Shown: positions 19,084 to 62,637 of the stretch, piece by piece | Numbering within the stretch: the stretch's first letter is position 1 | How the letters are laid out: every line of letters begins with the position of its first letter | Assembly: GCF_035084215.1 (NCBI RefSeq) | Contig: NC_090364.1 | Location: 3,410,001 to 3,474,000, forward strand | Direction: 5' to 3' | From: Heptranchias perlo | Lineage: Eukaryota | Length of the DNA: 64,000 bases | Translations under genes and position numbers: made by a program | The notes under the pieces: model-generated | Database searches by the model: none | Told to the model about the DNA's origin: nothing | Seen by the model: only the letters and a program-made list of their open reading frames with translations

Positions 19084-19113
19084 ATGAGACCAGTGGTGTC
19101 AGTTTGTACTGTG
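19084..19113 (+). CDS. TMEM86-family lysoplasmalogenase, coding exon 1 (MRPVVSVCTV)
   Basis: ATG...GTG|gtaagt perfect phase-0 donor; resembles TMEM86A N-terminus MVSPVTV; joins exon 2 in frame. Confidence 0.8.
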
Positions 19114-20024
19114 GTAAGTAAATTACAATAACACGCGTGCTCTGGGTTTTAATGGGAGGCCCTGAGCTGATATTCGACCAGGAGAAACTTCAGCTGTGGG
19201 GAAACTATCAGACGGTGCTGCACCTGACTCCAGCTCACACCTGTCGCTCAGGACTGCCTGTCACTGGGACTGACACCTGTCACTCAGACCCACCTCGCAC
19301 TGCGACTGATACCTGTCACTCAGACCCGACTATCACTGGGACTGACCCTCTCTGTCATGTGCTGTGCCTTGACCTGCCCTCACCCTGAACTTTGGGGATA
19401 AGACACTCTAACCCTCTCTGCTGGTTGTTCAGTGCACCCCCCTGGTAATGAAGTGGGGACAGTCATGATGTCAGGGCACTGGCCCTTGTACAAGGAACAG
19501 CAGGTGTTTGAGTTCACTGTATTGTCTGAACTCACCCAACAGAATGAAGACAGGTGCAGATGTCAGCTCGGAGCTCTGCAGGGATGCCCCCATCGTGTAA
19601 TGGCCCAACACACAAAATCAGGATCATACATTGATAATGGCCACTTGTGTAAGTGTCTGGAACCTGGCGAACTGTATCCAGGAGAGGAGTCAGTATCAAT
19701 AGGAGAGGGGGAATGGAAATTGGAGAGAAAAAAAATCTATATCCACTTGATCTAAATATTCACTGAAATGAGGTTGTGGAGTGGGGGAGAGGGGCCGTTC
19801 ATCTCATGAAATGTAATGAGCTACTTTGCAACTCTATGGTAACCAGTACAGCTCGTAGTTTCTCAACGCACGATCAAGGAACAGCTACAAGTTCGAACAC
19901 AACTTAACACTCGGGGGAAGCAGATAAGTAACGATCGTGAACAAGTGCAGGATGCTGGGGCTTCAGGAATGTCACAAAAACCTAGCACTATCGGGAATAT
20001 GGTGTCCTGCCCGTGATCTGTGGC

Positions 20025-20960
20025 TCTATCTCACTGTCTCTCTCTGTCTCTCTCTCAGTCTGACTCTGTCTCTCTCTCTCAGTCTGTTTCTGTCTCTCTC
20101 TCTCTGCCTGTCTCTCTCTCACTCTACCTCTGTCTCTCTCTCTCACTCTGAATCTGTCTCTCTCTTTCTCTTTCTTACTCTGACTCTGTCTGCCTCTCTC
20201 TCATTCTGTCTCTGTCTCTCTCTCAGTCTGACTCTGTCTCTCTCTCTCTCTGTCTTCCTCTCTCTCACTCTTTCTCTGTCTCTTACTCTAACTCTGTCTG
20301 CCTTTCTCCCTGTCTCGCTCTCACTGACTCTGTCCCTCTCTCTATCTCCCTGTCTGCCTCAATCTCTCTGTCTCGCTCTCACTGACTCTGTCTCTCTCTC
20401 TCTCTCCCTGTCTGCCTCTCTCACTCTGTCTCGCTCTCAATCTGACTCTGTCTCTCTCTCCCCCTGTCTGCCTCTCTCATTCTGTCTCGCTCCCAATCTG
20501 ACTCTGTCTCTCTCTCCCCCTGTCTGTCTCTCTCTTACTCTGACTCTGTCTGTCTCTCTCTCACTCTGTCTCTCTGTTTCTCTCTCACCCTGACTCTGTC
20601 TCTCTCTCTCTCTCTCTCTCTGTCTCGCTCTCACTCTGACTCTGTCTCCCTCTCTCATTCTCTGTCTCTGTCTGCCTTTCACTCTGTTTCTGTCTGTCTC
20701 TCTCACTGTCTCTATCTGCTTTTCTCTCTTTGTCTGTCTGCCTCTCTCTTTCTATTTGTCAGTCTGATTTCTCTTTCTCTCTCTCTCTGCCTTTATTCCT
20801 GTCTCTTGTCTTTCTTTGTCTCTCTCTCTCTTGCTTTCCCTTTGCTATCTCTGCCTTTGTTCCTGTCTGTTTCTCAGTGTCTCTTGTCTCTCTTTGTCTC
20901 TCTCACTCTTCTGACACCTGTTGCTGTTTCTCTTTTTTTCTCATTCTCACCATCTCTCTC
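20025..20960. repeat. CT-rich degenerate microsatellite
   Basis: (CT)n/(CTGT)n low complexity. Confidence 0.95.
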
Positions 20961-21240
20961 TGCCTTTCTTCCCTTCCTCTTACAATCTACAGGCTTTAAA
21001 CTCAAGCCTGGTTGTTACCTCACCATTATTTCTTGATTTATATTGTATCTTTCTCCTGCTCTTTCGCACCTTAGTGGTGCCTGCACTTTGGGGCTTGTCT
21101 CTTCTCCCAGGTTTCTCCATTTAAGACACCTTCGACCCAAATCCTTTCCAAGTCCTGCTGCATTAGTTGAGACAGCTCTTTGCTGGATTCTCGACCTGGT
21201 ATCCAGTGTGTTGAGCACCAGACTGCCTCACTCTACGCCC

Positions 21241-21576
21241 TAGGGGTTGCCAACTCTGGTTGGATGTATTCCTGGAGGTTTCATCGTGTGACGTCTCGCC
21301 TCCCACTGCCCCTCCCCCACACTCCTGCCATTGGTCGCCCAGCACTTTCATCCTCATGGCACACCGCCTCCCACGCCAAATTGGAAAGCGAACAGACTCT
21401 TCATGACTCGATTGGATGATTGTTGTTTGTCAAACAGCTTTCTTGCCCAACTCCTACATTTCCATCACCGATAAACGAAGAAAATTTTTTAAAATACTCT
21501 TTTTTTTTATGCCCCTGGGGTTTTTGCTCCAATTCCTGGAGACTCCAGGGCAATCCTGGAGGGTTGGCAACCCGTA
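21241..21576. mobile_element. hAT-type MITE, same family as 6703
   Basis: TIRs taggggttgccaac...gttggcaacccgta; other copies at about 32853-33070 (partial) and 60143-60523. Confidence 0.7.
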
Positions 21577-21969
21577 TCCGGGCTTGAAGAAGCTGGAGCC
21601 CTAAAGTACATGGAGTGCCTGCTATAACCAGGCCGGCCACAGGGGGTCCCCGGTCACCAATTAATCAGAGCCAACAGTCTACATTTTCTATTATAATGTT
21701 GATCGGAAAATTCTAGGCCCACAGCCCAAATAAGAGGAGGAGGAGGGGAAGGATGAGACGGGAGAACATTACGAGGAAGAAAAGACTTGATAGATTTTCT
21801 TTAAAAAGAAAGGTGCAAGGTTTTTTTTTGATGTAAAAAGTGGACACTTTGGTCCAGTAGGGGAGACTCTCAATGTACCTAGGCTAACCCTTGGCCTGAG
21901 AGCACTGACATGCTGTTATTTGGTATATAATGGAGGTGCCATGTCAAGGTAATGTAGATGGAGCGATCG

Positions 21970-22650
21970 GGGTGGTCCTCGTACAAGGAACACAGAAAGT
22001 TAGCGTGCAGGTACAGCAAGCAATTAGGAAGGCAAACGGCATGTTGGCCTTTATTGCAAGGGGGTTGGAGTACAAGAGTAAGGAAGTCTTGCTACAATTG
22101 TACAGGGCTTTGGTGAATAGTTTTGGTCTTCTTATCTAAGGAAGGATATACTTGCCTTGGAGGCGGTGCAACGAAGGTTCACCAGATTCCTGGGATGAGA
22201 GGGTTGTCCTATGAGGAGAGATTAAGTAGAATGGGCCTATACTCTCTGGAGTCTAGAACAATGAGAGGGGATCTCATTGAAACGTATAAAATTCTGAGGG
22301 GGCTTCACAGGATAGATGTTGTGAGGTTGTATCCTCCTGGCTGGAGAGTCTAGAACTAGGGGGCATAGTCTCAGGATAAGGGGTCGGCCATTTAGGACCG
22401 AGATAAGGAGGAATTTCTTCACTCAGAGGGTGGTGAATCTTTGGAATTCTCTACCCCAGAGGGCTGTGGATGCTGAGTCGTTGAGTATATTCAAGGCTGA
22501 GATCGATAGATTTCTGGACTCCAGGGGAATCGAGGGATATAGGGATCGGGCAGGAAAGTGGAGTTGAGGTCGAAGATCAGCCATGATCTTAATGAATGGT
22601 GGAGCAGGCTCGAGGGGCTGAATGGCCTACTCCTGCTCCTATTTCTTATG
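21970..22650 (+). mobile_element. CR1 3' fragment
   Basis: KANGMLAFIARGLEYKSKEVLLQLYRALV and CR1 tail. Confidence 0.85.
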
Positions 22651-60832: not shown

Positions 60833-61204
60833 GTGAGAATCTTTTACCTTATTAACGGCCACAACCCAGGTGTACCCAGAAGACGAGAGGAACAGGCAGT
60901 CCGAGCCCTGAAACTGTTTTATTTTTGAAGGAACAGGTGGCAAGATATTTTATATTCCGTCCAAATAATTCATTCTGGACTTCTTAAAATATGAAATTAA
61001 TTTGAAAGTGTTTGTGGTTTTATTTCCAAGACAATTAACTGGTGTTGGGAGGTTAGTGTTCTGGAATTAGATTGCAGATGGGATTAGTTTTACTAAGAAA
61101 TCCTGCAGATAGTTTCACTTCCATTTAAGGGCCGGTCAGCCCGGAGAACACCGGCTTGTAGCTGAAACAAGAGCGGACGCTGGTGATGGTGAAACAAAAT
61201 GGTG

Positions 61205-61299
61205 AAGTGCTGGAAACACTCAGCAGGTCAGACAACATCTGCGGAGAGGGAGAGAGAAACAGAGTTAAAGGTTTCAGCTCGATGGCCTTTCATCAGAAC
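61205..61299 (-). mobile_element. Second Penelope-like remnant with degenerate hammerhead core
   Basis: Minus strand gttCTGATGAaaggccatcgagctGAAAcctttaac next to ctgacctgctgagtgtttccagca. Confidence 0.55.
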
Positions 61300-61494
61300 C
61301 CGATCACTGACTCGCAGCCTGGATTTCAGGAGGGTCCCTCGGTGGACAATAACAACTGGGAGAAAGAGAGAGAGAGACAAAGAAGACAATCGTTAGGTTT
61401 CAGCACTGCTGACCCATTTTAAAGGGGCAGGCCACCTTTGTTGTGGTTGGAGGGGTGGGAGTGAAAATGCTTACAAGACCAGTAAACGACACAA

Positions 61495-62400
61495 CAACAA
61501 CAACCACTTGCATTTATATAGCGCCTTTAACGTAGTAAAACGTCCCAAGGCGCTTCACAGGAGCGATTATCAAACAAAATTTCGCACCGAGCCACAAAAG
61601 GAGATATTAGGACAGGTGACCACAAGCTTGGTCAAAGAGGTAGGTTTTAATGAGTGTTTTAAAGGAGGAGAGAGAGGCGGAGAGGTTTAGGGAGGGAATT
61701 CCAGAGCTTAGGGCCCAGGCAGCTGAAGGCACGGCCGCCGATGGTGGAGCGAAGAAAATTGGGAATGCGCAAGAGGCAAAAATTGGAGGAGCGCAGAGAT
61801 CTGGGAGGGTTGTAGGGCTGGAGGAGGTTACAGAGATAGGGAGGGGCGAGGTCCTGGAGGAATTTGAAAGCAAAGATGGGAATTTTAAAATCAGGGTGTT
61901 CCCGGACCGGGAGCCGATGTAGGTCAGCGAGCACAGGGGGTGATGGGAGAACGGGACTTGGTGCGAGTGTTAGGATACAGGCAGCAGAGCTTTGGATGAG
62001 CTCAAGTTTATGGAGGGTAAAAAGATGGGAGGCCGGCCAGGAGAGCATTGGAATAGAGGTAACAAAGGCATGGATGAGGGTTTCACCAGCAGATGAGCTG
62101 AGGCAGGGGCAGAGACAGGTGATGTTACGGAGGTGGAAGTAGGCGGTCTTGGTGATGGAGCAGATATGTGTTCGGAAGCTCATCTCATGGTCAAATAGGA
62201 CGCCAAGTTTGCGAACGGTTTGGTTCAGCCTCAGACAGTGGCCAGGGAGAGGGATGGAGTCGGAGGCCTAGGGAACGGAGTTTGTGGCAGGGACCGAAGA
62301 CAATGGCTTTGGTCTTCCCAATATTGGAGGAAATTTTTGCTCATCTAATACTGGATGTCGGACAAGCAGTGTGACAAATGAGAAACAGTGGAGGGGTCGA
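61495..62400 (-). mobile_element. L2-clade LINE 3' fragment
   Basis: ORF 61659-62183 KTAYFHLRNI...LIHAFVTS...APPYLCNLL..GGRAFS..GPKLWNSLP. Confidence 0.88.
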
Positions 62401-62592
62401 TGGGATGTGGATGGGGAAACGTATCGTGTGACACGTACGCTGGGGGATGGCGCAGCGTGGAAAAAAAGTTGTGAAGCACTTTTGTCTCCTGGGCGATGTC
62501 CCTTTAAGGCGGTTTCGATCCAGATGTTGTGCGACGCAATTTAATGGATGAGTCGATTTTTTAAAATTAATTTGTTTTGCTCTTTCTTTCAG

Positions 62593-62637
62593 TTTCGGAA
62601 TCAGTACGACAGTGATGTCACCACCTGGAGCCCGCAG
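62593..62637 (+). CDS. PSMA1: Proteasome subunit alpha type-1 (alpha6)-like, coding exon 2 (FRNQYDSDVTTWSPQ); gene continues beyond the window
   Basis: Strong acceptor ttttgctctttctttcag|, 45 nt, donor CAG|gtactg; 13/15 identical to vertebrate PSMA1 FRNQYDNDVTVWSPQ. Confidence 0.85.

Follow-up and report, generated by a model that had tools for sequence, protein, structure and literature searches.

The window considered here is a stretch of 64,000 nucleotides from the sevengill shark Heptranchias perlo, to which it is matched by an exon for a calcitonin gene-related peptide (CGRP) with 100% identity to the record XP_067830269.1; the chromosome that holds this CGRP-like gene measures 20,256,265 bp. 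The window contains no N, has a GC content of 47%, and 49% of it is repeated elsewhere within the window. Three genes follow one another on its forward strand, akin respectively to TMEM86, to the CGRP gene CALCA and to the proteasome gene PSMA1. A preliminary description of this DNA had taken them for a whole-genome-duplication sister of the human 11p15 CALCA region that kept ohnologues lost in mammals, and it is the origin of this block that concerns us. Synteny was deduced from protein records, together with a published gene table of the skate. The three genes are real and co-oriented, as had been said, and are built of the following parts:

19084..19113, forward strand: alternative coding start of TMEM86 (isoform X2 of RefSeq), not the one seen in other elasmobranchs
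24322..24372, forward strand: first coding exon of TMEM86 in its conserved form (isoform X4, MDIMDHDFRRRGK...), with CpG-rich surroundings
27027..27291, forward strand: TMEM86 exon 2, start of the YhhN domain (Pfam, translation)
34789..35216, forward strand: TMEM86 last coding exon with the stop, AATAAA at 35464 (Pfam, translation)
40026..40132, forward strand: TATA box of the CGRP-like gene (at 40026), then its predicted non-coding first exon up to a GT donor (sequence signals)
41343..41431, forward strand: CGRP-like exon with the ATG (41349) and a hydrophobic signal-type segment (equal to XP_067830269.1)
42527..42661, forward strand: exon for the pro-region of the CGRP-like gene, conserved in rays but not resembling that of CALCA (translation, comparison)
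43086..43275, forward strand: CGRP exon with KR, mature peptide, G-RRRR, stop at 43254 and donor after 43275 (Pfam, translation)
44409..45240, forward strand: predicted CGRP-like exon of the 3' untranslated region (UTR), AATAAA at 45225 (splice and poly(A) signals)
60664..60832, forward strand: PSMA1-like first exon, CpG-poor, a 5' UTR ending ATG|gtgaga (ATG at 60830-60832)
62593..62637, forward strand: PSMA1-like 45-nt exon, residues 2-16
62638..63941, forward strand: interval of 1,304 bp, about 990 bp of it repeats, without exons for PSMA1 residues 17-85
63942..64000, forward strand: PSMA1-like exon for residues 86-104, truncated where the window ends

The TMEM86 and CGRP-like exons and the 45-nt PSMA1 exon of the preliminary description are confirmed; it took 19084-19113, not the conserved exon at 24322-24372, for the first exon of TMEM86, and missed both the ATG exon of the PSMA1-like gene and the exon at 63942-64000.

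In the TMEM86 gene, exons 19084-19113, 27027-27291 and 34789-35216 translate exactly to isoform X2, and the last two are common to four RefSeq isoforms; the start at 24322-24372 is the one conserved in the sharks and rays compared. The two first exons are of two kinds, that at 19084-19113 like the short start of TMEM86A and hagfish, that at 24322-24372 like the start of TMEM86B. TMEM86A, the hagfish row and an unnamed lamprey-like row begin with MVS, and exon 24322-24372 resembles the start of bichir TMEM86B. RefSeq names the window gene TMEM86A-like, and its protein is 53.5% identical to bamboo-shark TMEM86A vs 40.7% to TMEM86B, a difference that we ascribe to its slow evolution. In a quick tree of 40 rows it clusters with TMEM86B of bichir and mammals (Shimodaira-Hasegawa-like approximate likelihood ratio test, SH-aLRT, 94), the identity of the TMEM86B rows being confirmed by name, and the grouping recurs with supports of 87/87 and 73/88 in smaller sets of 20 and 22 rows, which omit fragments, mis-spliced models, a long Anolis row and most invertebrate rows. 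Approximately unbiased (AU) tests reject its union with shark TMEM86A (p 0.0002) and with a third TMEM86 type (p 0.007); they also reject the union of the window gene with all TMEM86A (p 0.043), of A with B (p 0.042) and of B with the third type (p 0.039), but these last values are soft, the groups having been named after the first tree was viewed and the B branches being long.

The best 12 of 85 candidates include eleven named proteins from elasmobranchs that are of the window type. The bamboo shark Chiloscyllium punctatum has three members of the family: a canonical TMEM86A, a separate copy of the kind that the original proposal would expect, a window-type gene on another scaffold, and the third type, which groups with TMEM86A (84/90). 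This third clade (proteins P0174, P0343 and P0348) is a fast-evolving elasmobranch sister to TMEM86A, found on other small chromosomes, and in the skate table at least four genes are labelled Tmem86a. To judge from the trees, the window gene is most likely the orthologue of TMEM86B, with which it shares the YhhN family, the clade and an MD-type first exon, and the duplication that gave rise to it would predate the split between sharks and bony fish. It is predicted to be an intact gene of the lysoplasmalogenase family, as TMEM86B is. Grouping with TMEM86B, it would therefore be ohnologous to TMEM86A, yet mammals have not lost it, since they have kept TMEM86B, so that this part of the original proposal has to be given up.

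The coding exons of the CGRP-like gene (41349-41431, 42527-42661 and 43086-43254) translate exactly to the 128 residues of XP_067830269.1, with a match to Pfam PF00214 (E 1.5e-18). The mature peptide, encoded at 43114-43224, has the 37 residues, the Cys2-Cys7 ring and the terminal Phe of a CGRP, with KR ahead of it and, downstream, the Gly and basic run (G-RRRR) that signal amidation and cleavage. Like CALCA of bony vertebrates, the gene has the KR and G-basic sites and the phase-2 layout of signal, pro-region and CGRP exons. It differs in the absence of a calcitonin exon: neither tblastn with three precursors that contain calcitonin nor a scan for Cys rings found one between the pro-region exon and the CGRP exon, and the gene can thus yield CGRP only. 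Since calcitonin has been reported from stingray (PMC6283891), another gene must encode it. The pro-region exon 42527-42661 has no Pfam match. Within it the shark and most rays share a motif GK(I/V)LIRRVDG and, further on, a basic site, and cleavage there could release a second peptide of about 29 residues, itself without a Pfam match. The introns and flanks of the gene are strewn with minisatellite arrays of 16-55-bp units (40580-41270, 42800-42990, 43450-43820, 44620-44900 and 49340-50290). A structure search of the Atlas with the precursor gave a best TM score of 0.40 or less.

What we say of CGRP relatives is limited to the 120 matches listed of 411. Among these, orthologues of the CGRP-like gene are found in six ray species, to which the prepro-region is 46-55% identical; to all 11 bony-vertebrate CALCA precursors compared it is 5-9% identical, and it lacks the conserved N-procalcitonin pro-region, whereas the bony-vertebrate precursors are 55-81% identical to that of coelacanth. 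The mature peptide shares 31-33 of 37 residues with the rays and 27-30 of 37 with 114 other CGRPs. Asn14, Ile28 and Asp31 are fixed in the eight elasmobranch peptides, and are met in 0, 0 and 2, respectively, of the 114 others; the same change as Asp31 is reported to raise the affinity of synthetic CGRP fragments. His10 is replaced in every ray orthologue. With amylin (IAPP), an ohnologue also lacking calcitonin, the peptide shares the CNTATC ring and the LANFL segment, but the match is lower, human CGRP being closer than amylin (E 2.4e-12 vs 3.9e-9 or weaker), and His10, Phe27, Pro29 and Phe37 of the window peptide are of CGRP type, as expected for a sister of CALCA. On this evidence, the gene appears to be an extra elasmobranch CGRP gene of a known family. 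It is the only one of the three that qualifies as an intact copy for which no bony-vertebrate counterpart was found among the matches listed.

The third gene has the lone-ATG first exon and the 45-nt second exon of PSMA1, which encodes the proteasome subunit alpha6. Its residues 2-16 are identical to mammalian PSMA1 at 13 of 15 positions and residues 86-104 at 17 of 19, that is 30 of 34 overall (88%). The claim that all four genes of the window are divergent holds for TMEM86, at 53.5% to bamboo-shark TMEM86A, and for the CGRP precursor; the PSMA1 exons have diverged mildly. The window copy differs from PSMA1 in lacking residues 17-85 in this assembly and in its CpG-poor start (observed/expected 0.18), unlike a housekeeping promoter. 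The missing residues were found neither by tblastn nor by a hidden Markov model (HMM) run on the window cut into 3,151 six-frame pieces, and a direct splice from 62637 to 63942 meets a stop right after residue 16. Abrupt joins between fragments of short and long interspersed nuclear elements (SINE, LINE) and CR1 elements occur in 62638-63941, exactly where the exons are missing, and fit a repeat-mediated deletion or a misassembly. In this assembly, as its reading frames indicate, the copy is either broken or misassembled and holds no complete alpha-subunit frame, which weakens its standing as a kept ohnologue. Alpha6 is an essential subunit of the 20S proteasome, so the genome must hold an intact PSMA1 at another place unless this part of the assembly is in error.

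In a sequencing run presumed to be of RNA (X1), a contig of 334 letters aligns to 60664-60831, differing at two positions, and ends at the predicted donor. The depth of 9.57 in the bin of the 45-nt exon, vs 9.56 for the contig depth spread over 46 bases, indicates that the first splice, from the first exon to the 45-nt exon, is probably real; the remaining 119 letters of the contig would fit an 89-nt exon plus a 30-letter overlap, with a skip straight to the later exon. A protein search with the 46-codon PSMA1-like frame gave 12 matches, none recognizable as the gene of the window, a poor yield explained by the missing exons. One motif of the type bound by interferon regulatory factors (IRF), or interferon-stimulated response element (ISRE), lies at 60694-60706 (0.11 expected; 11 of 100 window shuffles reach one). 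The idea of an interferon-inducible alpha subunit was dropped, the motif lying inside the transcribed 5' part of a broken gene, and no connection was found with zebrafish psma6l.

The CGRP-like and PSMA1-like genes stand some 15 kb apart, as first estimated (15.4 kb from poly(A) signal to transcript end, 17.6 kb from stop to ATG). The CYP2R1 and PDE3B genes that a CALCA orthologue would have as neighbours ahead of PSMA1 are not found there: in agreement with the preliminary description, no P450 or phosphodiesterase Pfam family was matched by any of the 130 open frames of at least 35 codons in the non-repeat sequence of 43280-60660, a threshold that shorter exons could escape. The sole Pfam matches above cut-off between the two genes belong to a LINE; a match at 57372-57539 (E 0.019), below cut-off, was taken as chance. 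Two further features of the window are to be recorded:

54200..57130, forward strand: LINE retrotransposon with endonuclease and reverse transcriptase, disrupted, lying after the CGRP-like and before the PSMA1-like gene
3798..4820, reverse strand: intact, intronless open reading frame of 340 aa for a GPR146-like G-protein-coupled receptor (Pfam 7tm_1, E 9.7e-21)

The nearest Atlas cluster of the latter is 'G-protein coupled receptor 146' (score 0.99), and the receptor may be a further retained paralogue; GPR146 we take to be a gene of the 22q13/7p22-type segment.

TMEM86 and CGRP-like genes are on one chromosome in all five rays checked, and in four of these their accessions are 1-4 apart; in H. 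perlo they are about 180 apart, accession order being not strictly positional. In the bamboo-shark model chiPu_0008701, TMEM86 exon 2 is fused to a CGRP-like signal exon, with a resemblance that extends into the next intron, which implies the same order and strand in that species. In skate, the TMEM86 gene orthologous to that of the window is on chromosome 37 (Leri_37C; 13,149,398 bp), for which 90 of 243 places sampled in the spreadsheet of the PMC10115646 supplement gave 35 distinct genes, 31 of them named. The link to this chromosome rests on the TMEM86 orthologue, the CGRP-like gene itself not having been seen there. By their human positions, 11 of the 31 named genes would be of 19q13 type, 14 of 22q type and 6 of other types. 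Six (Rps11, Snrnp70, Lin7b, Ap2a1, Cnot3 and Ube2m) we take to belong to 19q13.3-13.4, and five are family copies whose human members KCNC3, NUCB1, TEAD2, CPT1C and BCAT2 are presumably in 19q13. Skate Pde3b, Sox6 and Adm map to chromosome 18 (Leri_18C), given as chordate linkage group (CLG) O 1-alpha in the table of PMC10115646. Indirectly, by way of skate chromosome 37, the block is thus placed on a paralogous chromosome of 19q13 type.

We can therefore understand the block, with a probability of about two in three, as a sister copy of the 11p15 segment born of the second round (2R) of genome duplication and corresponding to human 19q13.3-13.4, which would carry TMEM86B, a CGRP-only ohnologue of CALCA and a decaying PSMA1. 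In keeping with the original proposal, that it is not a rearranged 11p15 locus is indicated by the separate TMEM86A, the AU value of 0.0002 and the location on skate chromosome 37 vs 18. For the CGRP-like and PSMA1-like genes, we infer an origin by genome duplication from the company they keep. Under this scheme, the small elasmobranch chromosome would result from fusion of the 19q13-type sister segment with a 22q13/7p22-type segment, which would account for the GPR146-like gene in the window. On the sister segment an intact TMEM86B orthologue of the lysoplasmalogenase family would have been retained; the CALCA ohnologue would have lost its calcitonin exon and make CGRP alone, an output uncoupled from the calcitonin/CGRP splicing switch; and the PSMA1 copy would be decaying, no alpha6 subunit being possible from it as assembled. 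By extension of known CGRP biology, the peptide would be secreted, cleaved by convertases and amidated at its C-terminus, and may signal via a receptor of CLR/RAMP1 or CTR/RAMP type; the skate table holds at least two copies of Calcrl.

Several observations weigh against this account. No tree dates the duplications of CGRP and PSMA1, and the conservation of the PSMA1 exons (30/34) fits a younger duplicate as well. Support for TMEM86B is moderate and never starred, the AU values against the nearest alternatives are near 0.04 and the TMEM86B branches are long; the hagfish row falls weakly on the side of the window gene and TMEM86B (71/84), which would fit a split at the first round (1R) rather than at 2R. 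The matches listed include no orthologue of the CGRP-like gene from a bony fish or a chimaera, a canonical-type chondrichthyan CGRP precursor appears in none of the 120 (a weak point), and neither canonical shark CALCA nor PSMA1 was retrieved in the protein matches listed. Finally, in the table of PMC10115646 chromosome 37 has no assignment but CLG-H 2-beta, and CLG-O 1-beta bears the remark 'missing in all gnathostomes?'. Most simply, skate chromosome 37 would still carry the O sister segment, fused to the H segment, a fusion which would also explain the GPR146-like gene.

Restriction of the CGRP-like gene to elasmobranchs among the matches listed, and PSMA1 exons 88% identical to their mammalian counterparts in spite of the broken copy, could be taken to mean that TMEM86B alone is an old ohnologue, the CALCA and PSMA1 copies stemming from a later segmental duplication in cartilaginous fish that then lost the calcitonin exon, CYP2R1 and PDE3B, and part of PSMA1. 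The third elasmobranch TMEM86 clade, on other small chromosomes, suggests that later duplications from the region may occur. This is an unlikely course of events: the copies would have had to arrive by chance beside TMEM86B on a chromosome with 11p15 paralogues, the intervening genes would have left no trace in 130 frames, and the prepro-region would have diverged fully (5-9%) where bony CALCA precursors stay at 55-81% to coelacanth. Asn14 raises another thought, for it is common to amylin and the eight elasmobranch peptides and absent from the 114 other CGRPs: the gene might belong to the amylin side of the family as an ohnologue that parted from CALCA when the first duplication took place, and still bear the ancestral CGRP-like sequence. 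The weak position of hagfish in the TMEM86 tree and the equal rank of one CGRP cluster and one amylin cluster in the Atlas search (both 0.95) agree with this. We hold it very improbable, the mature peptide matching bony CGRPs at 27-30 of 37 residues, with their Phe terminus, and the 12p/amylin-type segment lying on other skate chromosomes in the published table. That the CGRP-like and PSMA1-like genes are ordinary orthologues in a rearranged position, with an assembly error in place of the missing exons, as the lack of a canonical shark CGRP precursor among the 120 matches and the cover of PSMA1-like exons by contigs of probable RNA runs might suggest, is likewise very improbable given an absent calcitonin exon, a precursor unlike CALCA, a CpG-poor PSMA1-like 5' end, a window without N and canonical neighbours on a different skate chromosome.

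Within the preferred account of a 2R sister segment, a bolder proposition can be made, unlikely when all its parts are taken together. Sharks and rays might have split the splice products of the ancestral CALCA between two genome-duplication copies: the CGRP-like gene would be their main or only source of CGRP; the canonical locus would give calcitonin, its own CGRP exon lost or strongly diverged; and the pro-region stretch between the basic sites would free a second, undescribed peptide, the gene being the missing CGRP/amylin-type partner of ADM5 on the third chromosome of the family.

Additional genes of CGRP type are familiar elsewhere: mammalian CALCB, which makes CGRP only, as well as CRSP and teleost CGRP2, which are comparable in this respect. 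Those genes came from tandem or teleost duplication (PMC6283891), whereas the CGRP-like gene of cartilaginous fish lies on a paralogous chromosome distinct from that of CALCA. RefSeq annotates it automatically as 'CGRP 2-like'. For the proteasome, PSMA8 is a known specialized alpha paralogue. Neither the CGRP-like gene nor a shark PSMA1 paralogue was found described in a literature search that covered few subscription papers; none of six gene names occurred in the supplementary ohnologue tables of PMC13450315 and PMC8040251, and a search of the main text of PMC11979771 returned no occurrences.

The automatic name 'TMEM86A-like' masks what is most likely the TMEM86B of sharks. Skate chromosome 37, for its part, seems to retain a segment that had been listed as possibly missing from gnathostomes. 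Sharks are known to keep extra ohnologues, and the CGRP-like gene is the less surprising for it. The model of the calcitonin family in PMC6283891 pairs ADM with CGRP and ADM2 with amylin, each pair on one of two ancestral chromosomes, and leaves ADM5 alone on a third; for cartilaginous fish it calls the set incomplete, no CGRP gene having been reported from them by 2018. If a gene for CGRP alone does lie on the 19q13-type chromosome, it would fill the empty slot beside ADM5, and would place CGRP, not amylin, near the ancestral peptide at this split. Conserved across the divergence of sharks and rays, some 286 million years ago (PMC10115646), the peptide is a natural CGRP variant useful for receptor pharmacology, and its gene is of real interest to comparative endocrinology.

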